From NCBI GenBank assembly GCA_035549215.1, contig DASZRI010000106.1, positions 2,687 to 66,686 of the forward strand: DNA of 64,000 bases, given 5' to 3'. The position numbers and the translations under genes were made by a program. The notes below the pieces were generated by a model. The model worked only from the letters and a program-made list of their open reading frames with translations, was not told the DNA's origin and ran no database searches. Below, piece by piece: positions 11,974 through 59,843 of the stretch (within the stretch, counting starts at the first letter, position 1; each line of letters starts with the position of its first letter). This DNA is from Gemmatimonadaceae bacterium (GTDB lineage Bacteria; Gemmatimonadota; Gemmatimonadetes; Gemmatimonadales; Gemmatimonadaceae).

Positions 11974-12018
11974 ACGCATGGCGGGCCTGCGGCCGCAACC
12001 CGGCGCATCCGAGAGGGC

Positions 12019-12936
12019 ATGAGCGTCCCCGCCCGTCGGCGCACCGCCGCGCGCTTCGTGCCGCTGGACCGCGCCCTCGAGGGACTTCCGCTCTTCCGCC
12101 TCAGCGACTCCGCCGAGGATGCCCCGCTGTCGTTCTCCACGCCCGACGGCGGCCGGTGGCGCGTGCTCCCCGCCCCCGGGGATCGGCTGCCGGGCACGTT
12201 CGACCAGGACATCTATGTGGAGCTGATGCGCCGCTTCCACGAGGCGCAGGCCCCCGCGGACGGCGTGATCACCTTCACCCTGCACGCCTTCCTGCGCTCC
12301 ATGGGGCGGCGCGTGGATGGCCGAACGTACGAACAGCTGCGCAGCGGCCTCGTGCGTCTGGAGCGCACGCGGCTCGAGTCCCTCGGCGCGTACCACTCCG
12401 CCACGGCGGGTCGCGCGGTGGACGCGTCGTTCACGCTGCTGTCGTCTGTCGCCATCGAGCGCCGGCGTGAGTCCGATCGCGCGCAGCTCGCGCTGTTCGA
12501 CACCACGACGGCACCGGAGCCGGGCGAGGCGCGCGTGGTCCTCGCGCCCCTGGTTCGCGAGAACGTCACGGCCCGGCACGTCGTCACGCTTGCCGTAGCG
12601 CGCTACCTCGCGCTCGGCTCGGCCGTCGCGCGCCGGCTGTACCGGCTGCTCGAGGTCGCGCGGGCCCAGGGACACCTGGCGTGGCGCGTGTCGCTGGAGG
12701 ATCTGAAGGAGCTGCTTCCCCTCGTGCAGCGGTACCCGTCGCACCTGCAGCGTGTGCTGCAGCCCGCCCATGACGCGCTGGTCGAGGTCGGCGTCCTTCG
12801 CAGTGCCACCGTTCGGCAGCATCGGCGGGCCTGGCACGTGGACTACGTGCTTGGCCACCGGGACGCCGGCCCCGTGGGCGGGGCGGGACAGGGAGCGTCA
12901 GCGCAGGCGGGCGGGACCGCGCCCCCTGCCACGTGA
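12019..12936 (+). CDS. Replication initiator protein A (RPA/RepA-like) family protein
   Basis: LEGLPLFRLSDS..., GTFDQDIYVELM, FTLHAFLRSMGRRVDGRTYEQLRSGLVRLERTRLES follow the pattern I know from plasmid RepA proteins of the RPA family (PLFSLS..., DxDiLiy, G..Y..l..aL.RL..T.i). Confidence 0.6.
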   Translation: MSVPARRRTAARFVPLDRALEGLPLFRLSDSAEDAPLSFSTPDGGRWRVLPAPGDRLPGTFDQDIYVELMRRFHEAQAPADGVITFTLHAFLRSMGRRVDGRTYEQLRSGLVRLERTRLESLGAYHSATAGRAVDASFTLLSSVAIERRRESDRAQLALFDTTTAPEPGEARVVLAPLVRENVTARHVVTLAVARYLALGSAVARRLYRLLEVARAQGHLAWRVSLEDLKELLPLVQRYPSHLQRVLQPAHDALVEVGVLRSATVRQHRRAWHVDYVLGHRDAGPVGGAGQGASAQAGGTAPPAT

Positions 12937-12967
12937 ACGCTTTTCGGGGTGCGGAGTAGTACGTGGC

Positions 12968-13183
12968 ATGGCCACGAAACTCACCCACGAGATCCGTCGC
13001 GAAATCGAGCTCGACGGCGAGCTGTACACCGTGGTGATCTCACCCCGGGGCATCCGGTTGTCCCGCAAGCGCTTCCGCTCGGGCCGCGGCCTGAGCTGGC
13101 GTGCGCTCTGGCGCCAGGGGCTGCCCGACATCCAGGCGGGGCCGCAGGGATCGCCTGTCCCGGGAGACCCGGCGTCGGTGTAG
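12968..13183 (+). CDS. Small hypothetical protein (71 aa)
   Basis: MATKLTHEIRREIELDGELYTVVISPRGIRLSRKRFRSGRGLSWRALW... lies directly downstream of the RepA-like gene. I recognise no family. Confidence 0.35.
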   Translation: MATKLTHEIRREIELDGELYTVVISPRGIRLSRKRFRSGRGLSWRALWRQGLPDIQAGPQGSPVPGDPASV

Positions 13184-13217
13184 TTTACGACAGCCACCTT
13201 CCGGGGTACCGCAGTCC

Positions 13218-14822
13218 ATGTTCCGCAATCGCAAGTTCGCTGCCGCCGCCATCATCCTGCTCGTGCCGGTCGTTGCCGGCGGGTTCCTGCTGCAGGAAAA
13301 GGGATCACACAACGGCGCGGTGCTGCTCGACCAGGTGTTCTCGCTCGTGTCCAGCCGCTTCGTGGACAGCGTGGACACCTCGGACCTGTATGAGAAGGCC
13401 GCGCGCGGCCTGGTCCGCGAGCTGAACGACCCGTACAGCCAGCTGTTTTCGCCCAAGGAGCTCAAGGCGTTCACCACGAACACCAACGGGCACTACGGCG
13501 GCATCGGCATGCAGATCGAGGACCACGACGGGTTCATCACCGTCAGCAAGGTCTTCCCCAACACGCCGGCCGAGGCGGCGGGCGTGATCGAAGGCGACCG
13601 GATCGTCAAGGTAGACTCGCTGTCGTCGCGCGGGTGGTCGCTGAACCAGACGTCCGACTACCTCACGGGCACGCCGGGCACGAAGGTGAAGGTCACCTTC
13701 AGCCGGCCGGGCGTCACGCAGCCCATCGAGGTGCAGTTCACGCGCGCGGTGATCCGCATTCCCGCCGTGCCCTTCGGCATCATGTTCGACGGCCGCGTGG
13801 GCTACGTGCCGCTGCAGCAGTACAACGAGACCGCCGCGTCCGAGGTGCGCACCGCCGTGCAGGCTCTCGTGAAGCAGGGCGCGCGAGGGATCATCCTCGA
13901 CGAGCGCGGGAATCCGGGCGGGATCCTGGACCAGAGCCTCGAGCTCAGCAACCTGTTCCTGAAGGACGGGCAGGAGATCGCGTCGGTGCGCGGCCGGGAA
14001 GGCCCGCCCTCGGTGTACAACGCCAAGGGCCAGCCGCTGCTCCCGAACACGCCGCTGATCGTGCTCACCGACGGTGGCACGGCATCGGCCGCGGAGATCG
14101 TGGCCGGCGCGCTGCAGGACCACGACCGCGCGCTGATCGTCGGCCAGACGAGCTTCGGCAAGGGCCTCGTGCAGTCCGTCTACAACCTGGATGACGGCTA
14201 CGCGCTCAAGCTCACGACCGCGAAGTGGTACACGCCGAGCGGCCGCTCCATCCAGCGCCCGCGCAAGTACGTGGACGGGCACTTCGTGGAGACGCCGCCG
14301 GACTCGTCGGAGAACGACTCGACCAAGAAGGCGCGCCCCGCGTACAAGTCGGACGCGGGCCGCGTGGTGTATGGCGGCGGCGGCATCACGCCGGACGTGA
14401 TCGTGTCCGACGACACGCTCACCACGGCGGAGCAGAAGTTCGCCAGGGCCATCGCCCCGCGCTCGCAGGACGTGTACCTCACGCTGTACGCGTTCGCCCT
14501 CGACCTCTCGCACCACGTGTCGCGCGGCTTCACGTTCCAGCCCGCGTGGCGCGAGGAGTTCCTCAAGCAGCTCGAGGCGCGCGGCATCACGATCGACCAC
14601 CAGCAGTACGAGGCCGCGTCGCGCTACGTGGACCGCCTGATCGAGCAGCGCCTGTCGCGCTTCGTCGAGGGCGACTCCACGGCCAAGCGCCGCGACCTCC
14701 GGTTCGACGCGCCGCTGCAGCGCGCCATCGCCCTGATGGACAAGGCGAGCACCCAGAAGGACCTGTATGCCGAAGCCGGCCTGAGCCGTACCCCTGCGGC
14801 GGCCACGGCGAAGAAGCCCTGA
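13218..14822 (+). CDS. S41 family carboxyl-terminal processing peptidase (PDZ-containing)
   Basis: N-terminal anchor MFRNRKFAAAAIILLVPVV. GGIGMQI, PDZ (PAEAAGVIEGDRIVKVD), RGNPGG, TASAAEIVAGALQD and FGKGLVQ motifs are present. Confidence 0.9.
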   Translation: MFRNRKFAAAAIILLVPVVAGGFLLQEKGSHNGAVLLDQVFSLVSSRFVDSVDTSDLYEKAARGLVRELNDPYSQLFSPKELKAFTTNTNGHYGGIGMQIEDHDGFITVSKVFPNTPAEAAGVIEGDRIVKVDSLSSRGWSLNQTSDYLTGTPGTKVKVTFSRPGVTQPIEVQFTRAVIRIPAVPFGIMFDGRVGYVPLQQYNETAASEVRTAVQALVKQGARGIILDERGNPGGILDQSLELSNLFLKDGQEIASVRGREGPPSVYNAKGQPLLPNTPLIVLTDGGTASAAEIVAGALQDHDRALIVGQTSFGKGLVQSVYNLDDGYALKLTTAKWYTPSGRSIQRPRKYVDGHFVETPPDSSENDSTKKARPAYKSDAGRVVYGGGGITPDVIVSDDTLTTAEQKFARAIAPRSQDVYLTLYAFALDLSHHVSRGFTFQPAWREEFLKQLEARGITIDHQQYEAASRYVDRLIEQRLSRFVEGDSTAKRRDLRFDAPLQRAIALMDKASTQKDLYAEAGLSRTPAAATAKKP

Positions 14823-14836
14823 TCCGGGTCACGACC

Positions 14837-15877
14837 ATGCGTACTTCCCTTCGTGCCGCCGCCATGGGTGTCCTGGCGGCGGTGTCGTCCGCCGCGGCGC
14901 AGTCCCCGGTGCTCAAGCCGTTTCCCGGCGAGCGCCACCTGGCGAACATCCGCCAGCTCACCTTCGGCGGCGAGAACGCGGAAGCGTACTTCAGCGCCGA
15001 TGGCAAGCGGCTGATCTTCCAGTCCACGCGCAATGGCCGCACGTGCGACCAGCAGTACATCATGGACATCGACGGCTCGCACGTGCACCGCGTGTCCACC
15101 GGCACCGGCAAGACGACGTGCGGCTACTTCTTTGGCGGCGACCGGAAGATCTTCTTCGCCTCCACGCACGCCGTGGACACCACATGCCCGCCCAGGCCCG
15201 ATCCGTCCAAGGGCTACGTGTGGCGCCTCGACCCGTACGACATCTACACCGCGAATGCCGACGGCACCGGGCTCAGGCGCCTGACGTCCAACAACGTCTA
15301 CACGGCAGAAGGCACGCTGTCCCCTGACGGCCAGACCATCGTGTTCACGTCGCTCAAGAACGGCGACCTGGACATCTATACGATGCGGATCGATGGCACG
15401 CATGTGAAGCAGCTCACGCACACGCCAGGGTACGACGGCGGCCCGTTCTTCTCGCCCGACGGCAAGAAGATCGTGTACCGCGCCTGGCACCCGACGGACA
15501 CCGCGCTGACGAACTACCAGGAGCTGCTGCGCCAGGGACTCGTGCGGCCGAATCGCATGGAGATCTGGGTGATGAACGCCGACGGCAGCGACCAGCATCA
15601 GGTCACGTCGCTCGGCGGCGCGAACTTCGCGCCGTACTTCACGCCCGATGGGCGCAAGATCATCTTCTCGTCGAATTACAAGAATCCGCACAGCCGGAAC
15701 TTCGACCTGTACCTGGTCAACCCGGACGGCACCGGGCTCGAGCAGGTGACCACCCACCCCGAGTTCGACGGATTCCCGATGTTCAGCCCCGACGGCAGGA
15801 AGATCGTATGGGCCTCGGACCGTCACGGGCAGAAACTCGGCGAGACCGATATCTTCATCGCCGACTGGGTGCCCTGA
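14837..15877 (+). CDS. TolB-like WD40/PD40 beta-propeller protein, secreted
   Basis: Signal peptide [22 protein letters not shown], then repeated SPDG/SADGK..IVF/IFS PD40 repeats. Confidence 0.8.
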
Positions 15878-15977
15878 CCGCCGCCGGATGCGCTGGCGAC
15901 CAGGCCCGTGGTCGCCAGTGATTCGTTCGCCGACCCGGGGGCTTCCCGTCGGCGACTCCTTCCGCGACGGAGCGGGC

Positions 15978-16922
15978 ATGGAGCGGGACAGCAAGATCTA
16001 CGTCGCAGGACACCTCGGGCTCGTGGGATCGGCACTCGTGCGCGAGCTGCGCGCACAGGGGTACCAACGGCTAGTGCACCGCACGCGCGCCGAGCTCGAC
16101 CTGCTGCGACGTGATGCCGTGGACGCGTTCTTCCGCGAGGAACGGCCCGACTACGTGCTGCTCGCGGCCGCGCGCGTGGGCGGCATCGTGGCGAACAACA
16201 CGTATCCCGCCGACTTCATCCGCGAGAACCTCGAGGTCCAGCTCAACGTCATCGACGCCGCGTATCGGCACGGCGTGCGCAAGCTGCTCTTCCTGGGCAG
16301 CGCGTGCATCTACCCGAAGATCGTGCCGCAGCCGATCCGCGAGGCGTACCTGCTGTCGGGCCCGCTCGAGCCCACCAACGCGCCGTACGCGATCGCAAAG
16401 ATCGCCGGCATCTCGCTCTGCCAGTCGTACAACCGGCAGTACGGCACGAACTTCGTCAGCGTGATGCCGACGAACCTCTACGGCCCCGGCGACAACTTCG
16501 ACCTGCAGAACAGCCACGTGATCCCGGCGCTGCTCCGCAAGTTCGACGAGGCGCGCGAGGCGCGGCTGCCCAGCGTCACGATCTGGGGAAGCGGCACGCC
16601 GCGGCGCGAGTTCCTCCATGTGGACGACATGGCGAGCGCCTGCGTGTTCGTCATGCAGCGCTACGACTCGTCCGAGATCATCAACATCGGGTGCGGGGAA
16701 GACATCTCGATCGGCGAACTCGCGGAGCTTGTGCGCCAGGTCACCGGATTCGAGGGTGCGCTCGAGTTCGACCGGTCAAAACCCGATGGGACTCCAATGC
16801 GTCGCCTGGACGTGAGCCGGCTCCAGGCCATGGGCTGGGCGCCTCGCATCCCCCTGCGAGAGGGACTCGAGTCCACCTACGCCTGGTACAGGGCGAACAA
16901 GGAAACCGCGAGGCACGGCTAG
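15978..16922 (+). CDS. fcl: GDP-L-fucose synthase
   Basis: [50 protein letters not shown] (YxxxK) and PALLRKF...[16 protein letters not shown] are classic Fcl/WcaG features. Confidence 0.9.
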
Positions 16923-17108
16923 CGGCCGTGTCAATGCATTGAAATTCATGTAATTCCGGCCGGGCGGATTGGGAGCCGGTGTCTCGTTTCTTTACGTTGC
17001 CTAATTTCTGGTGGGGCGTCACTTTACTGTCGTCGCCGCACCTCAGCGTATCGGCGGCACGACGGCCTGGTGCGACGATGCACTGGGACACCCCAGACGA
17101 CCCGCTCG

Positions 17109-18632
17109 ATGGCCCTGACCATCCTCATCCTCGCAACGCTTGCTTCACTGGCCGCTACGCGGTGGCTGGTGAGAGTGGCTCCGACGCAGCGTGAGCCCAG
17201 CATCGTGCCGATCACGTATCGGCCGGGTTCGGCGCCTGCCGTCCCGCGCGTGGGTGGTGTCGCGGTGTTCGTTGCGCTGATGGTCGCACTTGTCATTGCT
17301 GCGCTCGCCGGCTCACGCGGCGTGGACATGATGCTCGAGCACGCGCAGTTGTACGCCGGCATCCTGGCCGGCAGCGTGCTCATCCTCGCAGTCGGCCTGG
17401 CCGACGACCTGCTCGACCTCTCCCCCGCCGTGAAGCTCGCGGCGCAGGCGATTGCCGCGACGGTCGCGTGCACGGGTGGCCTTTGCCTCAAGACCGTCGC
17501 GCTGACGCCGTCGCTGACGGTGTCGCTCGGCTGGGTCGGCATCCCGCTCACGATCCTCTGGGTCGTGACGGTCACGAACGCGTTCAACTTCATCGACGGC
17601 CTGGACGGCCTCGCGTCGAGCATCGGCATCGTGGGCTTCGGCGCCACGCTGGTGTCGGCGTGGGTGCTTGGGCGCGCCGACGTCATGCTCCTCTCGGTCG
17701 GCATGATCGGCGCGCTGCTCGGCTTCCTGCGCTACAACTTCGCGCCGGCGCGCATCTACCTCGGCGACTGCGGCAGCCTGTTCGTCGGCTACATGCTCGC
17801 GGTCGGCTCGCTGGTCGGCGCCACTTCGCCGTCCTCCGGATCGCTGATCTACGTCCCGGTGTTCGCGCTCGCGCTGCCGCTCCTCGATGCGGCCGTCGCA
17901 ATCGTCCGGCGGTGGCTGCGCAGCATGCCGGTGTGGAAGGGCGACCACCGGCACATCCACCATCGCGTCCAGTCGCTCGGCCTGTCCAAGCCGGCCAGCG
18001 TCGGCGTGCTGGTGCTCGGCGCGGCCCTGCTTGCCACCAGCGGCCTGCTCGCCGCGTTCGCGAGCGCGGACGCCTTCCCGTCCGTTGCGGTGATGATTGC
18101 GGCGACGGTGGTGACGATGGTCGGCTACGGACTGCGCCGCCTGGGATACTACGAGTTTGCCGCGCTGCGCGCCGCCCTGCGGGCGCGGCCGGCCTCGGTG
18201 CGGCAGTTCATCCGGGAGGAGATCCGCCTGCGTGACGCCGAGTGCGAGATCCGCACGGCGCGCGACATGGAGGACCTGCGGACCACGCTGGACCGGTGCG
18301 CGCTGGCGTTCGGCCTCGATCGGATCGAGATTTCGCGCAGCAGGCCCCGGATCCGTCGCTCGTGGCAGGGCACCTATCGCGACCTGGTCATCACGCCCGC
18401 GGCGCAACGCGCCTCCGATGCGTGGAACCTGCGCGTCTGGCACGGCGAGTATGGCTCGCCCGGCGAGGCCCTTGTGCAGCGCGTGGGTGCAGCGCTGGCG
18501 CGGGCGACGGAAGGGTGGCTGCGTGACTATGGCTTGCTGCTCGCAGGCCGGCCTTCGCCGGCCCTTACCGAACCCGCGGCGCACTTGCGCCTGCGCACCG
18601 CGTTCCGCCGATCGCGCCTGGCCGAGGCCTGA
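17109..18632 (+). CDS. WecA/MraY-family polyprenyl-phosphate sugar-1-phosphate transferase with a C-terminal extension of about 150 aa
   Basis: Multi-TM protein with LADDLLDLSP and VTNAFNFIDGLDGLA signature motifs. The last ~150 residues (ALRAALRARPASVRQF...RSRLAEA) are soluble and of unknown family. Confidence 0.85.
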   Translation: MALTILILATLASLAATRWLVRVAPTQREPSIVPITYRPGSAPAVPRVGGVAVFVALMVALVIAALAGSRGVDMMLEHAQLYAGILAGSVLILAVGLADDLLDLSPAVKLAAQAIAATVACTGGLCLKTVALTPSLTVSLGWVGIPLTILWVVTVTNAFNFIDGLDGLASSIGIVGFGATLVSAWVLGRADVMLLSVGMIGALLGFLRYNFAPARIYLGDCGSLFVGYMLAVGSLVGATSPSSGSLIYVPVFALALPLLDAAVAIVRRWLRSMPVWKGDHRHIHHRVQSLGLSKPASVGVLVLGAALLATSGLLAAFASADAFPSVAVMIAATVVTMVGYGLRRLGYYEFAALRAALRARPASVRQFIREEIRLRDAECEIRTARDMEDLRTTLDRCALAFGLDRIEISRSRPRIRRSWQGTYRDLVITPAAQRASDAWNLRVWHGEYGSPGEALVQRVGAALARATEGWLRDYGLLLAGRPSPALTEPAAHLRLRTAFRRSRLAEA

Positions 18633-18656: not shown

Positions 18657-18944
18657 ATGCCCGGCCCGCTGACGATCGACTCGCGGGTCGCCGCGGCGCC
18701 CGACCAGCTCTCGACGCAGCTCTCCGGCGAGACCGTCATCCTCGCCCTGCAGAGCGGGCAGTACTTCGGGCTCGATCCCGTCGGCACGTACATCTGGGAG
18801 TTCCTGCGCGAGCCGCGCCGCGTGCACGAGGTGGTGGCGCACGTCGTCTCCCGGTACGACGTCAGCGACGAGCAGTGCACGCGCGACGTGCTGGCGCTGA
18901 TGGGTGAGCTCGCGTCGCACGGCCTCGTCACCATCGAGGAGTGA
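18657..18944 (+). CDS. PqqD-family RiPP recognition element (lasso B1-type)
   Basis: ATG at 18657, 6 nt after GGGAGGT. The sequence is ...LSGETVILALQSGQYFGLDPVGTYIWEFLREPRRVHEVVAHVVSRYDVSDEQCTRDVLALMGELASHGLVTIEE. This fits the PqqD pattern (x-v-l-l-sg-yy-LN-vg--iW, then an acidic helix, then L---gli). Confidence 0.8.
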   Translation: MPGPLTIDSRVAAAPDQLSTQLSGETVILALQSGQYFGLDPVGTYIWEFLREPRRVHEVVAHVVSRYDVSDEQCTRDVLALMGELASHGLVTIEE

Positions 18945-18969: not shown

Positions 18970-20847
18970 ATGAGCGGATTCGTCGTCCTGCTCGCGCGCC
19001 ACGGCGCGGCCGTGGATCGCGCGCAGCTCGGGCGCCTGGCGCAGGGGCTCGCATTCCGTGGGCCGGACAGCACCCACACGCTCGTCCGCGGCCCGGCGGG
19101 GTTCGGCGTGTCGCTGCTGCATGCGTCCATGCATCGTTCGCCCGCGGATTCCGTGCGGCAGGCGCTCGTGGACGACGGCGACATGGTGCTGGTCGGCGAC
19201 GTGCGCCTGGACGACCGGGACCGTGTGCGTCGAGACCTCGAGGGCGCCGGCGCTGCGGCACGACCCGACGCGACAGATGCTGAACTGTGGCTCGCGGCAT
19301 ATCGCACCTGGGGATCGTCGTGCGTCACGCATCTTTCCGGCGACTTTGCCGTTGTCGTCTGGGACGAGCCCCGGCAGCGCCTGCTCCTGGCCCGCGATCA
19401 GTTCGGGGTTGCGCCGCTCTACTACGCGCAGGCCGGGGGGGACCTCGTCGTCTCCAACACGCTCGACGCCATTCGCGCGCACCCGGGCGTCAGCGCTGAA
19501 CTCGACGACGGCGCCGTCGGCGATTTCCTGCGCGTCGGGTACAACACCGACCTCGCATCCACGGTGTTCCGCCAGGTGCGCTGCGTTCCGCCCGCGCATG
19601 TTGCTGGGGTCCGCGACGGCGTCGTGCACGTCGAGCGCTACTGGGAGCTGCCCGTCGAGGAGCCAGTGGCGTTCGGGAGCATCGCGGAATGCGCTGCGGC
19701 ATTCAACGAGGTCCTGCGCGCGGCCGTGCGGGACCGCCTGCGGGACACCGACGCCGCGGCGCTCCTGCTGAGCGGCGGCCGCGATTCCACTGCGGTGGCG
19801 GCGACGGCGCGCGACGTGGTGCCGGCCGGAACCCTGCCGGCCCTGCGTGCCTTCACGATCCACTACGACTACGCCGTTCCCGATGAGGAGCGTGCATTCG
19901 CCAGTGCGGCCGCCGCGCACCTCGGCATTCCGGCGGAGTTCGTCGCTGCCGACGAATACGCGCTGTTTGGCGGCCGCACTCGCACGGATTGCTGGCGTCC
20001 CGCGCCGGTTGAGGATGCGCAGCTTGCGGCCGATGCGGATTTCATGGCGCGCGTCGCGCGGCACGCGCGGGTTGCGCTGGATGGGCACGGGGGTGACGCC
20101 GCCCTGCGTGAGAGCGAGTCGCGATTGGCCCGCCTGCTGCTTGGTGGCCACTGGTGGCGCGCGCTGCGCGAGGCAACCACGTACACGATGCTGCACCACC
20201 GACTGCCGCGGCCGGGGTTCCGCCGGCTCCGCGCACGGCGCGCACAGGCGCTGCCGCTGCTCAACCCGATCCCGCAATGGATGCGACCGGAATTCATTCG
20301 CGCAGCGCGCCTCGAGGAGCGATGGCGTGCCGTCGAGCGCGCGGCGGAGCGCGACGCGCAGCATCATCCGTGGCGGCCGGAGGCGTACGGCAAGCTCGTG
20401 TCGTGGTTCTGGCCGCGAATGTTCGAGGAGATGGACCCCGGGTTCACCGGCGTTCCTGTCCATGTGCGCCACCCACTCATGGACCTGCGCGTCGTCCGGT
20501 TCCTGCTGCGCGTGCCCCCTGCGCAGTGGTACAACGACAAGGGAATCCTGGTCGCGGCCATGAAGGGGCGGCTGCCCGACCGCGTGCGCTTCCGGAACAA
20601 GACGCCGCTGGTGGGCGATGCAAATGCCGTTGCACTGGCCGCTGGCGGGGTGCCTGCCACCGAGCTCCAGCGCGTGTCGCCCCGCATCGAGCCGTACGTC
20701 GATCCCGCCGGGTTCGGGACGACGCCCTCGAGTCCGGACAGCGATGACTCGTGGGACTGGCTGCGTGCCGTGAGCCTTTCCGAGTGGCTCGCGCGAGTCG
20801 AGCGTGGAGACTCGTTCGTGAGGGCGGGGGGAGAGCCAGGAATGTGA
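18970..20847 (+). CDS. Asparagine-synthetase-like lasso peptide cyclase (C protein)
   Basis: The N-terminus is MSGFVV, so it lacks the catalytic Cys2 of true AsnB (MCG). The PP-loop LLLSGGRDSTAVAA (SGGxDS) is present. At 625 aa it sits between the RRE and precursor genes. Confidence 0.8.
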   Translation: MSGFVVLLARHGAAVDRAQLGRLAQGLAFRGPDSTHTLVRGPAGFGVSLLHASMHRSPADSVRQALVDDGDMVLVGDVRLDDRDRVRRDLEGAGAAARPDATDAELWLAAYRTWGSSCVTHLSGDFAVVVWDEPRQRLLLARDQFGVAPLYYAQAGGDLVVSNTLDAIRAHPGVSAELDDGAVGDFLRVGYNTDLASTVFRQVRCVPPAHVAGVRDGVVHVERYWELPVEEPVAFGSIAECAAAFNEVLRAAVRDRLRDTDAAALLLSGGRDSTAVAATARDVVPAGTLPALRAFTIHYDYAVPDEERAFASAAAAHLGIPAEFVAADEYALFGGRTRTDCWRPAPVEDAQLAADADFMARVARHARVALDGHGGDAALRESESRLARLLLGGHWWRALREATTYTMLHHRLPRPGFRRLRARRAQALPLLNPIPQWMRPEFIRAARLEERWRAVERAAERDAQHHPWRPEAYGKLVSWFWPRMFEEMDPGFTGVPVHVRHPLMDLRVVRFLLRVPPAQWYNDKGILVAAMKGRLPDRVRFRNKTPLVGDANAVALAAGGVPATELQRVSPRIEPYVDPAGFGTTPSSPDSDDSWDWLRAVSLSEWLARVERGDSFVRAGGEPGM

Positions 20848-20887: not shown

Positions 20888-21130
20888 GTGGATTTCCGGC
20901 GGTCGGCAACGTATCCTGTTTCCATGGGCCTTCATGAAAACTGCACGGCCACAGCGGGCCAGTCCGCTGGTTCAAGCCAACGCGCTTCCTCGGCAGAAAC
21001 CGGGGCCGCGCGCGAGCCCTACACCTCGCCACAGGTGAACCACCTTGGCCTCGTGAAAGAGCTCACCGAGACGGTGGGGTCGCGCGGCAAGAAGGACGGC
21101 AAGACCGGGAACCGCAGGACGGGATACTAG
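20888..21130 (+). CDS. Lasso-type precursor peptide A1 (80 codons from the GTG at 20888; the true start is uncertain)
   Basis: ...EPYTSPQVNHLGLVKELTE-TVGSRGKKDGKTGNRRTGY*. The leader carries Y-17, P-14, V-12, G-8 and T-2. The C-terminal 19 aa are nearly identical to those of the adjacent ORF, with synonymous differences between them (AAC CGC AGG versus AAT CGC CGC, both N-R-R). Confidence 0.7.
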   Translation: MDFRRSATYPVSMGLHENCTATAGQSAGSSQRASSAETGAAREPYTSPQVNHLGLVKELTETVGSRGKKDGKTGNRRTGY

Positions 21131-21132
21131 AC

Positions 21133-21378
21133 ATGACCGGTGAGAATGGACGTCCGGTCGCGGCTATACATGGGAGCCCAATTACAGGCCCCCATCGGGA
21201 AATGCCGTCTCCGGATCTGCCCGGCACAGCGACGGCGCCAGAGGCCGGCCAGAAGCCCCGGCTGCCGTATGCACCGCCGCGACTGACTGTGCTCGGAACC
21301 GTAGCCGATATCACCCGGACGGTGGGAACGCGCGGCCGCAAGGACGGGAAGAGAGGTAATCGCCGCACGGGATACTGA
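21133..21378 (+). CDS. Lasso-type precursor peptide A2 (81 codons)
   Basis: The ATG lies 2 nt after the A1 stop. ...LPYAPPRLTVLGTVADITR-TVGTRGRKDGKRGNRRTGY*. The leader carries Y-17, P-14, L-12, G-8 and T-2, an exact match to YxxPxLxxxGxxxxxTx. Confidence 0.75.
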   Translation: MTGENGRPVAAIHGSPITGPHREMPSPDLPGTATAPEAGQKPRLPYAPPRLTVLGTVADITRTVGTRGRKDGKRGNRRTGY

Positions 21379-21442
21379 ACCCGCGCGAGGCTCGTGTCGG
21401 CCTGTTCGTGCGAGGGCGGATCCGGTATCCTCCCACGCATCC

Positions 21443-22411
21443 ATGTCGGCCTTCCAAGCGCGCGTGTACGGCCTCGTCCTGCAGTGTGACGAGGCAATCC
21501 CGGGACTGTCCGCGACGGACCAGGGCCCGGCGGATGTGGTGGTGCGCCTTCGGGCGCTCCCGGCGTGGCTCGAACGCGAGGATGGTTCATCTCGCACCAT
21601 CTGGACCGCGCGCGCAGGCGATGATCGTGACACGGACGATCTCGTCGTCCGCACCTGGCGCGACGGCGCCTACGTCGAGGTCGCCTACGACGACGGTACG
21701 CGCTTCGTGATGGATCACGGGGGCACGCAGGTCTGGGCCCAGTGGCGCAACGCGTCGTCCATCGAGGACATGGCGACCTACCTGCTGGGCCCGGTGCTCG
21801 GCCTGCTCCTCCGACTGCGCGGAACGCTCTCCCTGCACGCAAGCGCCGTCACGTTTGGCGATACGGCGGTGGCGTTCACCGGGCAGGCAGGCGCTGGCAA
21901 GTCCACCACCGCCGCGGCGTTCGCCCAGCGTGGCGCGCGCGTGATCGCCGACGACATCGCGGCGCTGTTCGTGCGCGATGCTCGCTGGTGGGTGGAGGCA
22001 GGCCCTGCGTCCGTCCGCCTGTGGCCGGAGAGCGCAACGGCGCTGTTCGGCGACGCTTCCACGCTTCCCCTGCTCGCACCGTCCTGGGAGAAGCGGCAGG
22101 TGACGCCCGGCGTCCTGCCCGCAGCATTTGCCGGCGAATCACCCGTCGCACTCTCTGCCGTCGTCATTCTCGGCGCCCGCGGAACGGGAAGTGCGCCCAC
22201 GCTGGCTCCACTCTCCCAGCGCGACGCACTCGTCGCTCTCGTGGCCGACACCTACGCCAGCGTCCTGCTCGACCCAGCGCAGCGCGGCGTCGAGTTCCTG
22301 GCGCTCTCGCGGCTCGTGCAGGACGTGCCCGTGTATCGCGCCACCCCCGCGGATGACATCGGGCGCCTTGATGAGCTCTGCGACGCCGTGCGCCGGCTCG
22401 TCCATGGCTGA
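21443..22411 (+). CDS. HPr-kinase-related (HprK-like) kinase, RiPP tailoring type
   Basis: LHASAVTFGDTAVAFTGQAGAGKSTTAAAFAQRGARVIADD resembles the HprK C-terminal P-loop domain, in a RiPP gene context. Confidence 0.7.
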   Translation: MSAFQARVYGLVLQCDEAIPGLSATDQGPADVVVRLRALPAWLEREDGSSRTIWTARAGDDRDTDDLVVRTWRDGAYVEVAYDDGTRFVMDHGGTQVWAQWRNASSIEDMATYLLGPVLGLLLRLRGTLSLHASAVTFGDTAVAFTGQAGAGKSTTAAAFAQRGARVIADDIAALFVRDARWWVEAGPASVRLWPESATALFGDASTLPLLAPSWEKRQVTPGVLPAAFAGESPVALSAVVILGARGTGSAPTLAPLSQRDALVALVADTYASVLLDPAQRGVEFLALSRLVQDVPVYRATPADDIGRLDELCDAVRRLVHG

Positions 22412-23591
22412 GCATGCGCCGCTGCACCACCCGCTGCTCGACGTAGCCCGGTGGTGCGCGCGTGCCGAGCTTGACGACACGGCACGCGCCGCACTCGATG
22501 CGTGCACGGCGACGCCGCTCGCATGGGATGCGCTGCCGCCATTGCTGCGCGCGCATGGGCTCACCGCGCTCGCGGTGCGGCACCTCTCACACGTTCGCAC
22601 GCGCATCCCGCCGCCGGTGTGGGACACACTGTCGGGGCAGTCCGCGGAGGACCAGGCGCGCGCGCTGCGCATGACCGCCGAGTTGCTGCGCATCGTGGAT
22701 GCGCTCGGCGCCGAGGGGATCGCGGTGCTGCCGTACAAGGGGCCGCTGCTCGGCCTCGTGGCGTACGGCGACCTGGCTATGCGCCGCTCATCCGACCTCG
22801 ACGTGCTCATCCACCCGGCCGACATGGCGCGAGCGATCGCAGCACTGGCGCCACTCGGCTATCGGAACGCGGATCGCATGTCGCCGGCGCAGGCAGCGTG
22901 GTTCCTGCGCGCCGACGGGGACGTGTCCGTCGTCCACGACGACACGGGGCTGCTCGTCGAGCTCCACGCATACGCGACCACACGCCGGCTTGGCCCCACG
23001 CCCGGGTTCGCCGAATTGTGGGAGCGGCGGAAGGACCTCCAGGTCGCGGGGCGCCGTGTTCCCGCGCTCGACGCACATGACCAGCTGCTGCTCCTCGCAC
23101 TGCACGGCACCAAGCACGGCTGGCGAAAGCTGGAATGGCTCGCCGGTCTTGCATCGCTGGCCGCCCGCAATCCGGACGCACTCGAGCGACTCATCGCCGC
23201 AGCGCCGTCCGGTGCCCGCGCCCTGCGCCTCGCGTGCGCACTGTCGGCCTCGCTGCTCAGCGTGGAACTGCCCGAGCGCGTGCGGCACGCCGTCGCCGCG
23301 GATGCCGCTGCGAATGCCCTGGCCGCGCAGGTGGTGACACACATGCAGCAGCCGGAGGACGACCCCAAGCGCGATGACACGTTCGAGCGGCTGCTCTTCA
23401 ACTGGCGTGCGCAGGACGGCACCCGCGCGCGGGTGCGCTATGCATGGCGTTGGGGAACCTGGCCGTCGCCGGAGGACTGGCAGCAGGTGAGGCTGCCGGA
23501 CGCGTTGTTTCCCGCCTATCGCCTGGTGAGGCCGATCCGCCTGGCATGGCGCTTCGGCCCTCGCGCGCTGGCGTCCATCTTCGCGCGCTGA
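22404..23591 (+). CDS. Nucleotidyltransferase family protein (uncharacterised NTase, NTP_transf_5-like)
   Basis: The ATG overlaps the kinase stop by 8 nt (ATGGCTGA). KGPLLGLVAYGDLAMRRSSDLDVLIHPAD fits the pol-beta-type G[GS]...DxD motif. The partnership with an HprK-like kinase is as in other lasso loci. Confidence 0.65.
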   Translation: MAEHAPLHHPLLDVARWCARAELDDTARAALDACTATPLAWDALPPLLRAHGLTALAVRHLSHVRTRIPPPVWDTLSGQSAEDQARALRMTAELLRIVDALGAEGIAVLPYKGPLLGLVAYGDLAMRRSSDLDVLIHPADMARAIAALAPLGYRNADRMSPAQAAWFLRADGDVSVVHDDTGLLVELHAYATTRRLGPTPGFAELWERRKDLQVAGRRVPALDAHDQLLLLALHGTKHGWRKLEWLAGLASLAARNPDALERLIAAAPSGARALRLACALSASLLSVELPERVRHAVAADAAANALAAQVVTHMQQPEDDPKRDDTFERLLFNWRAQDGTRARVRYAWRWGTWPSPEDWQQVRLPDALFPAYRLVRPIRLAWRFGPRALASIFAR

Positions 23592-23599
23592 GGATCGGG

Positions 23600-26104
23600 T
23601 CAGCCGCCTTCCTGCGGCGCGTACCCGTAGCCGTAGTAGTAGTCGCCGTAGCGTCCGTAGCGCGGCGTGCGTGCGTCAGGGTCGTTGAGCACGGCGCCAA
23701 GGATGCGGCCGCCCACGTTGCGGATCTGCTCCACGGCGTGGCGCGCGGCTTCGCGTTCGGTCCTGCCCGCGCGCACGACAACGAGCACGCCGTCAGCCTG
23801 CACGCTCATGAGCGCCGCATCGGCAGTGACGAGCACCGGCGGCGTATCCACGAGGATGACGTCGAATTTCGCCCGCAGCGTATCGAGCAGCTCGTGCATG
23901 CGCTCGCCGCCCAGGAACTCGAGCGGGTTCGGCGGCAACGTGCCGCCCGGAAGGACACTGAGCCCCGCCACGCCCGATGCGCGCAGTCCCTGGTCGAGGG
24001 TGTTCTTGCCGACCAGCACGTCGGTGAGCCCCGGCTCGAGTGCCAGGCCGAACACATCATGCACGCGCGCGCGGCGCAGGTCCGCGTCGATCAGCACCAC
24101 GCGGCGTCCCTGCTGGGCGAATGCGACGGCGAGGTTGGCCGAGGTCGTCGTCTTGCCCTCGCCAGCCGAGGCGCTGGTCACGACCATGACCTTGAGCCCC
24201 GGGCGGGACGCCGAGTACATCAGGTTGGTCATGAGCTTGCGGTACGCCTCGGCACTGGCCGAACGCACGTCGCTGATCATGACCAGCTCCTGCCCGTCGC
24301 CCTCGCTCGCCAGCACTCGCGTCGACGGGATCATGCTCGGCAGCAGCCGGCTTGCCGTGGCCCGGGCGCGCGCGCGCAGGGTGGCGTGGGCGTCCGCGCT
24401 GATCTGCGGCACGAGGGCGAGCCCGGGCACGTGCATGACGCTGTCCAGGTCGTCCCAGCGGCGGATGGTGCTGTTCAACCGGTCGGTGACGATGGCCAGC
24501 CCGATACCGAACAGGAGCCCGATCAGGAGGGCGTACGCCAGCTTGCGCCGCCGTCCCGCGGTGATCGCGCCCATCGGGTAGCGCGCGAGGTCCACCACCT
24601 GCACCTGCCCCGCCTCGACGGCCTCGGCGATGCGCGCCACCTGGAGCTCGTCGTTCAGCTTGTCCGACATCTTGCGGATGTTGTCCACGTCGCGGAGCAG
24701 GCGCTGCTCTGTCTCCTCGGACGACGGCAGGGACGCGATCTGGCCCGCGGCCTGCTGCCGGCGCGCGTTGACGGCGGACAGGTTGCCGTCGATCACGGCG
24801 AGCTGGTTGCGCACGGCGGCGATCAGCTTGGGTTCCGTGCTTGCGATGAGCGCGTCCACGCGTTGCACGTCCGGGTGCTGCGGCGTGCGCGCGAACATGC
24901 CCGTCGTGAGCGAGTCGCGCGCGTGCTCGTAGCGCATCAGGTCGGTGTACAGCGCGCCGACCGCCGCGTTGCCGCTGGGATCCGGCGTGAACGCCAGCGT
25001 CCGCAGCGCAGCGGGATCGCCGTTGGTGTGGCGCTCGAGCGCGCTCAGCAGCCCCTGGTACGACCGCCGTGCATCGTCGAGCTGCTGGACACGCTGGTCG
25101 AGCGTCGCGAGATCCTGCTGCTCGGTGGCGTAGCGGTCCTTGGCGCTGAATGCGAGGGTGCCGCGGCGATAGGCGGCCACGCGCGCCTCCGCCAATTGCA
25201 GCATCGAGTCGGTGGCCGCGAGCTGCGTCTCGATGAAGATGCGGCGACGGTGTGACTGCTGGCGCGCCGTGCGCGCATTGAACGCCTGGTACTGCAGGGC
25301 GGCGGCGCTCGCCACCCGCTGCACGACATAGGGATCGTTGCCCGTAAACGAGATATCGATCACCGATGTCATGTCGCGCGGCTTGGCGCTGATGCCGCCG
25401 AGCACCGCGTCGATGGCCGCCTCACGCGGGAGGACGGCCAGCGAGGCGTCCTGCCAGCCGGGCTGCGGGCCGGGAATCGTGAACGTGGCGCTGGCAATCT
25501 CGATTGGCGTGCCGTACGCGGCGGTCACCGTGTCGCGCGGCCCGCTCACGGTCACGCTCTTCGACGTGAAGTGCAGTCGCAGCGTTGCGGGAACGGCGTT
25601 CGGCGCCACCCGCACGTCCTCGAAGTTCGCGAGGTAGAAGCCCGGCGTAATACTCTGCAATTGGAGGCCAAGCGAGTCCACGACCAGCTCTGCGATGGCG
25701 CGGCTCTGGATCACCTGCACCTGCGTCAGCACCGGGTCCGTGTACCCGCCGTAAGCGCTCGCGTAGTCGGGCACGAGGTCGCCAGCCACCTGCGGCCGCT
25801 GGTCGGTGAGCTGCACCGCGCTGGACGTCCGGAACAGCGGCAGGTCGTGGCGCGTGCGGTACCACTGGTAACTGATCCCGACGAGCGCCGAGAGGACGAT
25901 GAGCCACCAGTACCGGCGCAGGATGCCCAGGTACTGCCGGATCGGGTTGGCGGCGGGAAGCGACGCATCCGGCCCGAAGCCGGGCGGGAATCCGGCGCCC
26001 GGAGGCGGGTACGCGAAATTCGGCATCATCGCACCCGGCATCGGGCGGCGCACTTCCACGGGTCGGTTCTCAGTCACGGCCCCTCCGGCGGGATCGAGAC
26101 GCAT
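23600..26104 (-). CDS. Polysaccharide co-polymerase / tyrosine autokinase (Wzc/GumC-type)
   Basis: It has a Wzz-like periplasmic domain, a second TM helix, a Walker A (SASAGEGKTTTSANLA) and DADLRR. The C-terminal Tyr cluster reads YGRYGDYYYGYGY. The start is Met at 26104 or Met at 26041. Confidence 0.85.
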   Translation of the reverse strand: MRLDPAGGAVTENRPVEVRRPMPGAMMPNFAYPPPGAGFPPGFGPDASLPAANPIRQYLGILRRYWWLIVLSALVGISYQWYRTRHDLPLFRTSSAVQLTDQRPQVAGDLVPDYASAYGGYTDPVLTQVQVIQSRAIAELVVDSLGLQLQSITPGFYLANFEDVRVAPNAVPATLRLHFTSKSVTVSGPRDTVTAAYGTPIEIASATFTIPGPQPGWQDASLAVLPREAAIDAVLGGISAKPRDMTSVIDISFTGNDPYVVQRVASAAALQYQAFNARTARQQSHRRRIFIETQLAATDSMLQLAEARVAAYRRGTLAFSAKDRYATEQQDLATLDQRVQQLDDARRSYQGLLSALERHTNGDPAALRTLAFTPDPSGNAAVGALYTDLMRYEHARDSLTTGMFARTPQHPDVQRVDALIASTEPKLIAAVRNQLAVIDGNLSAVNARRQQAAGQIASLPSSEETEQRLLRDVDNIRKMSDKLNDELQVARIAEAVEAGQVQVVDLARYPMGAITAGRRRKLAYALLIGLLFGIGLAIVTDRLNSTIRRWDDLDSVMHVPGLALVPQISADAHATLRARARATASRLLPSMIPSTRVLASEGDGQELVMISDVRSASAEAYRKLMTNLMYSASRPGLKVMVVTSASAGEGKTTTSANLAVAFAQQGRRVVLIDADLRRARVHDVFGLALEPGLTDVLVGKNTLDQGLRASGVAGLSVLPGGTLPPNPLEFLGGERMHELLDTLRAKFDVILVDTPPVLVTADAALMSVQADGVLVVVRAGRTEREAARHAVEQIRNVGGRILGAVLNDPDARTPRYGRYGDYYYGYGYAPQEGG

Positions 26105-27209
26105 GACGTGCGGACACGTCCGCGTAGAGGGCGCGGGTCCGCTCGCCCATGCTCTGCAAGCTAAACTCTTCTGCGACGCGCTGCCTGCCCGCAACCCCGA
26201 GGGTGTGCCGGAGTCCCGGGTCGTTCAGCAGGCGGTTGATGGCCGCGGCAAGGGCCTGCGGATCGGCCGGCGGCACGGTCAGGCCCGTTTCCCCATCACG
26301 CGACACCTCGGGCACCCCCGACGGAATGTTGGTGTTGACCACGGGGATCCCGCTGGCCATCGCCTCGAGCTGCACGATGCCGAACGCCTCGCTGCGCAGG
26401 TGGGATGGAAGGGCGAACACCGACGCGGCGTGGTACCACGGCGTGGTGTCGGCCACATGCCCGACGAACGTCACGCGATCGGCGACTCCCACACTGCGGG
26501 CCTCGGCCTCGAGGGCGGCGCGCATGGGCCCCTGGCCCACGATCACGAGTCGCGCATCCACGCGGGACATGGCGCGGATCAGGTACTCCAACCCCTTGTA
26601 GTACACGAGCCGCCCCACCGCGAGCACGATGCGATCGCCGTACGCCTGCCGGATGCGCGCCACCGCAGCGGGATCCGCGGTCGCGTAGGCGGCGGGATCA
26701 ATCGCCATCGGGATCTCGACGCAGCGGTCCGAATGCCGCTGCAGCATGGGCGAGCCTCGCATGTAGGCGGTGGAGCTCACGATCACCGCATCGGCCCGCC
26801 GCAACACACCGCGCACGATCGGTTCATACACCACGTTGAGCAGCTGCTGCTGCACCACGTCGCTGTGATAGGTCACGACGAGCGGGCCCCGGTGCCCGCT
26901 GGCCAGGTAGCTCGCGAAGGCCGACGGATTCGGGTGGTGCAGGTGCACGATGTCCGCACGCGCCGAGCGGATGCGCCAGGGCAGCGTCGGGCAGATGGGC
27001 GCGCTGCGCACCGTCGCGATCGTCGCCATGCGCGTCACCGGCACGCCGTCAATCACCTCGTTGGTGGTGTGCGCGCTGTGGCTCGCCACGACGACGTCGA
27101 GCGTCACGTAGTCACGCAGCACGCGGCACAACCCTTCCAGGTGTGTCTCCATGCCGCCTTCATCAGGCGGGTAGTACTTGCCGACCTGCAGTACGCGTAC
27201 GTCACGCAT
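26070..27209 (-). CDS. Glycosyltransferase, GT4-type (GT-B fold)
   Basis: MRDVRVLQVGKYYPPDEGGMETH... and SEAFGIVQLEAMASGIPVV (E-x7-E). The start overlaps the upstream stop (ATGCGTGA). Confidence 0.85.
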   Translation of the reverse strand: MRDVRVLQVGKYYPPDEGGMETHLEGLCRVLRDYVTLDVVVASHSAHTTNEVIDGVPVTRMATIATVRSAPICPTLPWRIRSARADIVHLHHPNPSAFASYLASGHRGPLVVTYHSDVVQQQLLNVVYEPIVRGVLRRADAVIVSSTAYMRGSPMLQRHSDRCVEIPMAIDPAAYATADPAAVARIRQAYGDRIVLAVGRLVYYKGLEYLIRAMSRVDARLVIVGQGPMRAALEAEARSVGVADRVTFVGHVADTTPWYHAASVFALPSHLRSEAFGIVQLEAMASGIPVVNTNIPSGVPEVSRDGETGLTVPPADPQALAAAINRLLNDPGLRHTLGVAGRQRVAEEFSLQSMGERTRALYADVSARHASRSRRRGRD

Positions 27210-58075: not shown

Positions 58076-59190
58076 CGCGAGCTCCGGAGCGAGAGGGCAC
58101 CGCACACCCCGACACAGAACAGCGCGCCGACCGCGGTCGACAAGCGGAGCGTCGCATCCTGTTCGCGCGCCTGGATTACCAGGGTGTGCCATGTGGCGAG
58201 CACCGAATCTGTCGAGATCCCTGCCGCAGCCTGCACCACGGCAGCGGGGTCGTCGGCCGCGGCCTGCATCCGCGCAAAGGCTCCCGGTCCCCCAATGCTC
58301 ATTGCGAGCCGCAGCACGTCCCGGCCTTCACCGCCCAACAAGGGCGTCAGCGCGTCGGTCGGCAGCGTGGCCAGCACGGAGTTGCACGCGCTGTCCAGCC
58401 GAGCCGCCACGCAGCCAGCCGCATCTCGCTGGAGCCCAGGCGTCCACTGCCCGCGCATCCGCTCCACCAGGAACCGCCGATCCTGCGCATCGTACCAGTT
58501 GGCCAGCGGCGCATCGCGCCCCACCAGTCCGAGCGCGCGGCCGCACGCCGAGACGTCGCCGTCCAGGCAGGCGCGCGCGATCGATGATTGCGAGAGCACC
58601 AGGTCGATGTGCGCATTCCGCCACGCGTCAGTGCCCGGCAAGTCGAGTGGGATGTCACGGCCAGCCCAGCGCTGCACCGCGGGCCCGAACGCGCTCATCA
58701 GGCGTCGCGCACTCCGCTCCTCCAGGTCCCGCGCGACGGCGTCGACGTCCGCCACCTGCTGCTGAGCACCCGTCAGCCGCCCGGTCGAGTCCACATCCAT
58801 CACCTCGACCACCGGCGGCGTGCCCGGTTTGTTGGCGCGCGCAACGCGCCGCACCGCGATGGTGCGCGCGGCCGCCGCCACCCCGGCTGCCCCCATGCGA
58901 GACGCTATCACGCGTGTCGCGCGGGCTGCCGCAGATCGTGCCAGCGCGCGATCAGCGGAATCCACGAGGATGGTGAACGCCCCCTCCACGATCGTGTCGC
59001 GCGGGATGGCGCCACGGCGCGCGGAGTCCTGCCGCGCGGCAAGTGCCGCCAGCGCGGCCTGCGTGCGCTGCAACCGCTCGATGCGCGCCCGGTACGCGGC
59101 AGGATCCTGTCCGCGCAGCGTGCGGGCACCGGCCGTGGCGAGCACCACGAGCAGCGACAGGCAGGTGGCTAGGCGCCGCGCATCACACAT
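58066..59190 (-). CDS. Hypothetical secreted protein with a C-terminal TM anchor
   Basis: MCDARRLATCLSLLVVLATAGARTLRGQ... and a C-terminal AVGALFCVGVCGALSLRSSRWR. Confidence 0.5.
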   Translation of the reverse strand: MCDARRLATCLSLLVVLATAGARTLRGQDPAAYRARIERLQRTQAALAALAARQDSARRGAIPRDTIVEGAFTILVDSADRALARSAAARATRVIASRMGAAGVAAAARTIAVRRVARANKPGTPPVVEVMDVDSTGRLTGAQQQVADVDAVARDLEERSARRLMSAFGPAVQRWAGRDIPLDLPGTDAWRNAHIDLVLSQSSIARACLDGDVSACGRALGLVGRDAPLANWYDAQDRRFLVERMRGQWTPGLQRDAAGCVAARLDSACNSVLATLPTDALTPLLGGEGRDVLRLAMSIGGPGAFARMQAAADDPAAVVQAAAGISTDSVLATWHTLVIQAREQDATLRLSTAVGALFCVGVCGALSLRSSRWR

Positions 59191-59827: not shown

Positions 59828-59843
59828 CTGCGCTCCCTCCCCG

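Follow-up and report, generated by a model that had tools for sequence, protein, structure and literature searches.

The 64,000-nucleotide stretch analysed here (the window; contig DASZRI010000106.1 of a Gemmatimonadaceae bacterium, G+C ~70%) carries two tandem small open reading frames (ORFs), A1 and A2, which lie between a lasso-type cyclase gene and a kinase gene. Both ORFs (20888..21130 and 21133..21378, + strand) and their C-terminal sequences were found where an initial annotation had placed them and had read them as precursors of a lasso peptide. The genes of the predicted operon, with precursor lengths in amino acids (aa), are as follows.

18657 to 18944, + strand: PqqD-family RiPP recognition element (RRE; lasso B1), Pfam PqqD 2.3e-19; its ATG at 18657 is preceded by GGGAGG.
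18970 to 20847, + strand: Asn-synthetase-like lasso cyclase (C), Pfam Asn_synthase 8e-31 and GATase_7 2e-22.
20924 to 21130, + strand: precursor A1, 68 aa from ATG 20924; the alternative start GTG 20888 gives 80 aa.
21020 to 21070, + strand: leader motif of A1, followed by the predicted core TVGSRGKKDGKTGNRRTGY (21071 to 21127) and the stop codon (21128 to 21130).
21133 to 21378, + strand: precursor A2, 81 aa from ATG 21133; the alternative start ATG 21202 gives 58 aa.
21268 to 21318, + strand: leader motif of A2, followed by the predicted core TVGTRGRKDGKRGNRRTGY (21319 to 21375) and the stop codon (21376 to 21378).
21443 to 22411, + strand: HprK-related kinase (lasso "K") with P-loop GQAGAGKST and an ADD motif.
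22404 to 23591, + strand: NTP_transf_5 nucleotidyltransferase (lasso "N", PsmN-like), Pfam PF14907 6e-43, with the DxD motif SSDLDV.

The leader motif of the two precursors links them to the lasso class. Counting back from the proposed cut, both copies show the spacing Y-17, P-14, V/L-12, G-8 and T-2 that the initial annotation described. When the six-frame translation of the window was searched with a strict form of the motif (Y..P.[LVI]...G.....T., then 10–30 residues and a stop), two instances were obtained, against a mean of 0.01 and a maximum of 1 in 200 dinucleotide-preserving shuffles. A2 scores 22.0 bits with NCBIfam lasso_leader_L3 NF033521, above the curated threshold of 19, and matches NF033528 lasso_cyano at 7e-5; A1 gave no match to the NCBIfam lasso models. 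In both precursors Asp occupies core position 9, within the range of isopeptide acceptor positions required for the lasso class (7–9). As to leader position -9 (window 21044-21046 and 21292-21294), A1 and A2 both have Leu, a residue found in only 3 members of the polycationic subfamily described below (Tyr 40, Phe 14), while Tyr occupies this position in 76/84 precursors of the wider family.

The two cores agree at 45 of their 57 bases and at 16 of their 19 residues, the changes being S4T, K7R and T12R; five further codons (G3, G10, G13, N14 and R16) differ synonymously only. The N-R-R codons read AAC CGC AGG in one copy and AAT CGC CGC in the other, exactly as reported earlier, and the core differences are indeed mostly synonymous or conservative. 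Both precursors are under purifying selection, with a Nei–Gojobori dN/dS of 0.28 over the core alone and of 0.41 once the leader from Y-17 onwards is included, values that come from a small sample. The charges of +6 (A1) and +7 (A2) were likewise reproduced, from six and seven basic residues versus one Asp; they hold with Asp9 used in the ring and the C-terminal carboxylate ignored. A near-identical environmental contig (L088, 3.3 kb) differs at 11 positions, none of them within A1 or A2, and the 68-aa A1 protein has also been called in JGI metagenomes (P0117).

Relatives of the peptides were recovered by searching a 36-position A1+A2 profile against 1.84 billion representative proteins. The search returned 56 matches at E<=1e-3, headed by A1 in the form that starts at ATG 20924. 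A2 as the sole query of a word-indexed protein search gave no matches, so that the exhaustive profile search was needed. The matches comprise ~55 distinct cores, mostly from Gemmatimonadota/Gemmatimonadaceae, and one has been named "lasso RiPP family leader peptide-containing protein" by NCBI. Most follow the core pattern x-V-G-x-[RK]-G-[KR]-[KR]-D-(6–9 residues)-R-R-T-G-[F/Y]. In an alignment of 32 members the leader residues Y-17, P-14, G-8 and T-2 are invariant, as are V2, G3, G6, D9 and the T-G near the C-terminus in the core. The 55 unique cores are most often 19 aa long and carry a median net charge (K+R-D-E) of +6. At residue 1, Thr (31 cores) is followed in frequency by Ala (7), Lys and Ser (5 each), Arg (3), Asn (2), and Leu and Gln (1 each); the chain ends in Phe in 41 cores and in Tyr in 14. 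The relatives found within clusters have the core TVGRRRRRDARRGRRRTGY (L087) or the form S/A-[GV]-G...D9...[RK]TGF (L001-3, L084-86).

In light of this family, several features that had been singled out as unusual (Thr1, the high charge, the aromatic C-terminus and the long leader) turn out to be shared among the ~55 cores, and the window peptides are thus typical members. The long N-terminal extension is itself a family trait, being unconserved and rich in Pro, Ala and Ser. The C-terminal Tyr is present in A1 and A2, as noted earlier, but it is not a special trait: because Phe replaces it in 41/55 cores, the conserved element is R-R-T-G-[F/Y] rather than the Tyr hydroxyl. Some family members lie outside recognisable clusters, at a site of conserved synteny between Peptidase_M28 and CopD genes (L089 9648-10201, L090 10001-10201). 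These orphan precursors, P0186 and P0120 in tandem and P0132, had no cyclase or RRE within 10 kb, and a third family member (P0166) resides on the same 1.77-Mb contig as P0120. Five public proteins recovered by the profile search (P0129, P0152, P0153, P0127 and P0172) contain 2–4 tandem YxxPxLxxxGxxxxxT leader motifs, each followed by a core-like stretch. P0129, with 199 aa and four repeats ending ...DEPSGS.VK.SD.RLK.D, exemplifies what may be multi-cassette lasso-type precursors.

The remaining genes of the operon fit the assignment. The RRE matches NCBIfam lasso_PqqD_Bac NF033536 at 1.3e-19, with 70 bits against a naming cut-off of 80, and in the PDB a "lasso peptide biosynthesis PqqD family chaperone" (9x90_B, 1e-12), TbiB1 (5v1u/5v1v, 4e-11) and TfuB1 (7e-3). 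The cyclase matches NCBIfam lass_lactam_cya NF033535 at 7e-83, with 279 bits below a cut-off of 525. Its ORF is open from GTG 18904 and its homologues align from Met23 (M-S-G-F...), the consensus start of the alignment being MSGFVG; the PP-loop SGGRDS is present, and the N-terminus reads M-S-G in place of the M-C-G of AsnB. A large protein search gave 116 cyclase homologues, which stem mostly from Gemmatimonadota, as do the closest ones with 50–53% identity. The kinase matches Pfam Hpr_kinase_C (4e-6), NCBIfam HprK_rel_A (8e-9) and, in the PDB, HPr kinase 1jb1/2qmh (2e-5), the match to the latter being confined to the surroundings of the P-loop. The ATG of the NTP_transf_5 gene (22404) overlaps the kinase stop, and its product is called as a 395-aa protein on contig L088.

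The gene context was compared across loci anchored on the cyclase. A one-genome-per-species scan provided 80 loci from Gemmatimonadota, Acidobacteriota, cyanobacteria and other phyla; the cyclase of the window (SGDF) is itself unmatched by the scan pattern [LHI]GDF..., by which closer genomic relatives may have escaped. The homologous loci keep their precursors: in 75 of the 80, a small ORF with identical Y-to-T spacing begins fewer than 150 nt downstream of the cyclase, and spurious matches to this motif elsewhere are rare. All 84 unique precursors of this wider family preserve the leader spacing. Their first acidic core residue is D9 in 50, D10 in 24 and D/E8 in 9, and the residues at position 1 include N (18), T (17), S (16), A (16) and G (8). 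A Thr occurs among the last four residues in 73/84, and a C-terminal Ser in only 6/84. Counted from the canonical T-2 cut, the D10 members (24/84) imply either a ring of ten residues or cleavage at a different site. Sixty-one loci have 3 kb or more of flanking sequence on each side; among them, 60 encode the kinase, in each case following the precursor, 55 the RRE, 53 the NTP_transf_5 protein and 40 a B2 peptidase. Given their presence in 60/61 and 53/61 loci, kinase and NTP_transf_5 are near-core components of this lasso lineage. Two B2-less clusters from different phyla, Gemmatimonadaceae (L081 13359-14558, which is the L002 locus) and Pyrinomonadaceae (L032 11053-12192), carry a PRMT-like methyltransferase gene (PrmA + PRMT_C) between the kinase and NTP_transf_5, which may add to the tailoring; Arg is abundant in the L002 core and missing from that of L032.

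Based on these data A1 and A2 are likely two diverged functional precursor genes for a class-II-type lasso peptide, encoded in a PqqD(RRE)–cyclase–A1–A2–HprK-like kinase–NTP_transf_5 operon. By homology to RREs of the TbiB1/TfuB1 type, the RRE would bind the leader via Y-17xxP-14xL-12. The leader would then be cut after T-2/x-1, presumably by a host enzyme or by a protease whose gene lies elsewhere, and the ATP-dependent cyclase would link the Thr1 alpha-amine with the Asp9 side chain. The expected product combines a 9-residue ring with a 10-residue Arg/Lys-rich tail, which would be threaded in a lasso, and has a calculated monoisotopic mass of 2019.07 Da (A1) or 2116.15 Da (A2). The substrate of characterised lasso kinases is a C-terminal Ser, whose phosphate is subsequently hexosylated by PsmN (PMC8498205; PMC6993621). 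In analogy with paeninodin and pseudomycoidin, the kinase may phosphorylate a hydroxyl near the C-terminus, here Thr17 of R-R-T-G-[F/Y], and the NTP_transf_5 enzyme may decorate the resulting phosphate. We infer Thr17 as the likely acceptor because it is the only invariant hydroxyl in the tail and a C-terminal Ser is lacking.

Several observations weigh against this assignment. A B2 peptidase (Transglut_core3) was not found in the whole 64-kb window, where an iterated hidden Markov model (HMM) built from 55 B2 proteins of the family and run with filters off against all ORFs of at least 40 aa gave a best match at noise level (E=0.02, 10 bits); nor was a B2 (PF13471) found within 8–10 kb in any close Gemmatimonadaceae relative. 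The operon thus offers no evident enzyme for leader removal; a B2 copy may lie elsewhere in the genome. The window also has no exporter after NTP_transf_5, where every Gemmatimonadaceae relative examined has an ABC transporter. The C-terminal Ser targeted by characterised lasso kinases (PMC8498205) is absent, the cores ending in Tyr. None of the cyclase, the RRE and the kinase reaches its curated NCBIfam or Pfam naming cut-off. As A2 with NF033521 is alone in passing a cut-off and A1 has no match at all, the Gemmatimonadota group falls outside the curated NCBIfam lasso families. Lastly, Gly3 is invariant while residue 1 varies (T/A/K/S/R/N/L/Q), a pattern that fits a core starting at Gly3 as well.

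The latter alternative concerns the leader/core boundary and is unlikely, yet it is the one that survives best. Here, the leader would be cut two residues later, after Thr-Val, so that the core begins with the invariant Gly3 and closes a 7-residue Gly–Asp ring, with calculated masses of 1818.96 Da for A1 (GSRGKKD...) and 1916.03 Da for A2 (GTRGRKD...). Huascopeptin has a 7-residue ring closed on Asp (Gly1–Asp7), so ring size alone does not exclude such a start, and the objection to a Gly3–Asp9 ring raised in the initial annotation is weaker than it was put. Gly3 is present in 55/55 unique cores and Val2 in 47/55, whereas residue 1 includes Lys, Arg, Gln and Leu; Thr, the commonest residue 1, could itself act as the -2 Thr, and most characterised lasso peptides begin with Gly, Ala, Ser or Cys (PMC12670498). 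Conversely, the canonical -2 Thr is invariant, with the exact Y-17/P-14/L-12/G-8 spacing, in every member, whereas residue 1 is Thr in only 31/55; this invariance makes the better case for Thr1. The nearest relatives found within clusters carry Ser or Ala at residue 1, which leaves no Thr two residues before Gly3, and across the wider family Gly is not conserved at position 3; both observations favour the Thr1 boundary. Non-canonical first residues are moreover documented elsewhere, with Asn in metanodin and Phe or Glu in the palassoptides, and surveys list every residue but Pro at this position (PMC12670498, PMC13632552). A cut after T-2/x-1, as originally proposed, with the predicted Thr1–Asp9 ring is accordingly the boundary best supported by the alignment of homologous small ORFs.

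Slightly less probable again is the possibility that the cluster no longer makes a threaded lasso, and that the peptides stay unmatured or end up as linear or branched-cyclic phosphorylated products. Such a reading would accommodate the missing B2 and the absence of the ABC exporter from the window only; furthermore, pseudomycoidin produced without its tailoring enzymes is not threaded (PMC6993621). It is opposed by the purifying selection on both precursors, by the near-identical contig without a change in A1 or A2, by intact PP-loop, P-loop/DD and DxD motifs, and by the retention of the RRE together with its leader motif. Pseudomycoidin can in addition form without B1/B2, which are thus dispensable in at least this case, and a B-less cyanobacterial cluster with a kinase has already been noted (PMC6993621). 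The B2-less layout PqqD–C–A–K–(methyltransferase)–N recurs in 21/61 loci from several phyla, for example in Pyrinomonadaceae (L032), which argues for a stable architecture rather than recent decay. Two candidates for a replacement of B2 were examined and set aside. A hidden B2 in the C-terminus of NTP_transf_5 was ruled out, as Pfam searches at E<=5 on the whole protein and on its C-terminal part were negative and the whole 364-position domain is common to loci with and without B2. The upstream S41 peptidase and PD40/Tricorn-like genes, considered as a source of a substitute leader peptidase, are syntenic in Gemmatimonadaceae only; because neither they nor the nearby RPA gene occur in B2-less loci from other phyla, a part in leader removal is not supported and they are regarded as neighbours rather than cluster members. 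The only ABC genes seen in the window are of the ABC-2 type and lie ~36 kb away (59183-60755, minus strand).

A class-II-type lasso assignment invites comparison with three groups of characterised systems. The paeninodin/pseudomycoidin type from Firmicutes (PadeK/PsmK kinases) likewise combines cyclase, split-B RRE, precursor and HprK-family kinase in one cluster, and pseudomycoidin PsmN is an NTP_transf_5-like "uncharacterised nucleotidyltransferase", as in the window (PMC6993621, PMC8498205). The rings comprise nine residues in both cases, Ala1–Asp9 or Ala1–Glu9 there and a predicted Thr1–Asp9 here. Unlike the known kinases, which modify the side chain of a C-terminal Ser, the kinase of the window family faces a Tyr/Phe end and a conserved Thr three residues from it. 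The core is polycationic rather than acidic, B2 is missing, no exporter is found in the window, and the operon belongs to a different phylum, Gemmatimonadota, and is embedded in a polysaccharide locus.

With triculamin, lariocidin and gelatinamin the window peptides share short, Gly-rich, Lys/Arg-rich cores and a ring closed on Asp, and such highly cationic lasso peptides can be ribosome-targeting antibiotics (PMC11451635; PMC12070363). Triculamin and lariocidin, however, form a Ser1–Asp8 ring with a nearly invariant PGDG (PMC12070363), whereas the window cores read KKDGK/RKDGK with Asp at position 9. Their leaders are without Y-17/P-14/L-12, or follower peptides take their place, whereas the window leader is canonical; and their accessory genes encode a GNAT acetyltransferase for self-resistance and often a clostripain-like peptidase, in contrast to kinase and nucleotidyltransferase here. 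No acetyltransferase (GNAT) was found between 15.8 and 26.2 kb. Given these differences in motif, ring size, leader type and accessory genes, the window peptides were not placed in this group, the likeness being one of charge and Gly content. A third group, metanodin (Asn1), the palassoptides (Phe1/Glu1) and fusilassin (Trp1), also has a ring-forming residue 1 other than Gly, Ala, Ser or Cys, with the boundary set by T-2 and ring size as here (PMC12670498, PMC13632552). Their clusters contain B or B1/B2 and no kinase, whereas that of the window has a kinase and no B2. In the literature searched, no report of an experimentally shown Thr1 lasso was found.

The surroundings of the operon place it inside a polysaccharide locus. 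Genes were called by GC3-guided ORF picking combined with Pfam and NCBIfam scans, and the neighbours are the following.

11974 to 15877: upstream neighbours, namely a replication-initiator-like RPA, an S41 C-terminal processing peptidase with PDZ domain and a PD40/Tricorn-like beta-propeller.
15888 to 16922, + strand: NAD-dependent epimerase, Pfam Epimerase 1e-69.
17070 to 18632, + strand: WecA/MraY-type sugar-phosphate transferase, Pfam Glycos_transf_4 7e-39 and NCBIfam ECA_wecA 2e-38.
23600 to 26194, - strand: Wzc-type polysaccharide co-polymerase/tyrosine autokinase, NCBIfam eps_fam 2e-57 and Wzc 1e-55.
Between 26070 and 41747: GT4/GT2 glycosyltransferase genes, from Pfam/NCBIfam.

From the epimerase through NTP_transf_5 the genes form one co-directional run, in which the stop codon of the WecA-type transferase lies 24 nt before the start of the RRE. 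The convergent Wzc gene marks the downstream edge of the lasso operon and is the first of the glycosyltransferase gene run; its stop and that of NTP_transf_5 are 8 nt apart (window 23591-23600). The order DZR – VitK2_biosynth – MerR – (SDR) – RPA – S41 peptidase – PD40 – (epimerase) – WecA – RRE – C – A – K – N – (ABC) – Wzc (reverse) – GT4s (reverse) is found in the window and in all Gemmatimonadaceae loci examined, and this conservation points to vertical inheritance at a fixed site. The constant placement also hints at a physiological role.

In summary, the locus appears to represent an uncharacterised Gemmatimonadota subfamily of kinase/nucleotidyltransferase-type lasso clusters, which as predicted departs from characterised systems in four respects: the lack of a cis-encoded B2, the lack of a C-terminal Ser, the polycationic Thr1 core and the polysaccharide-locus site. 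The initial annotation is silent on the missing B2, on the kinase and nucleotidyltransferase and on the polysaccharide setting. A much broader scenario can be drawn by joining these traits, although in its entirety it is doubtful. Polycationic Thr1–Asp9 lassos of Gemmatimonadota, inherited vertically, would mature without a dedicated B2, be phosphorylated on the internal Thr and then glycosylated or nucleotidylated, and be co-transcribed with the sugar-phosphate transferase that primes exopolysaccharide synthesis; rather than serving as conventional secreted lasso antibiotics, they would act on the envelope or an anionic polymer, or as nucleic-acid- or ribosome-binding antibiotics convergent with lariocidin. 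Lasso peptides are stable scaffolds, several of them antibiotic, with lariocidin and triculamin hitting the ribosome, and the present locus would add a separate cationic family of ~55 distinct cores from a poorly studied phylum. It raises the questions of how the leader is removed without B2, whether the cyclase can use Thr (or Lys, Arg, Asn or Gln in relatives) as the ring N-terminus, and whether an HprK-type lasso kinase can act on an internal Thr. At present, judged from sequence comparison, this is a well-supported bioinformatic family with concrete mass predictions.

Leader length depends on the start codon. For A2 the 61–62 aa stated earlier stand if ATG 21133 is used (62 aa), with 39 aa from ATG 21202; for A1 this length probably does not hold. 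ATG 20924 is the in-frame start closest to Y-17 and is the start of the public gene call P0117, and identity to P0182 (85% identical to A1) falls from 84% over the 32 residues after Met 20924 to 58% over the 12 residues before it. A1 therefore probably starts at ATG 20924 with a leader of 49 aa. Called family members have their Met 5–49 residues before Y-17, and the leader of P0179 measures only 24 aa. A clear Shine–Dalgarno sequence was not found before any candidate start of A1 or A2, nor was a sigma-70-like promoter or an intrinsic terminator found between 18.4 and 23.8 kb, and the folding of the A2–kinase spacer is on a par with that of shuffled controls (z=-0.4). The absence of these signals, the fact that the metagenome gene caller does not call A2 and the abundance of long spurious ORFs at 70% G+C could be taken to mean that A1 and A2 are chance open frames in GC-rich DNA, a notion that is hardly credible and already refuted by the comparative data, namely the motif count far above shuffles, the homologous peptides at the same position in 75/80 loci, the 56 significant profile matches and the mainly synonymous or conservative substitutions. 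Two copies of the heptamer GTATCCT occur in this region, at 20911-20917 (6 nt before the A1 ATG) and at 21425-21431 (11 nt before the kinase ATG); an 8-mer based on it, allowing at most one mismatch, is mildly enriched in the window (26 vs 15 expected).

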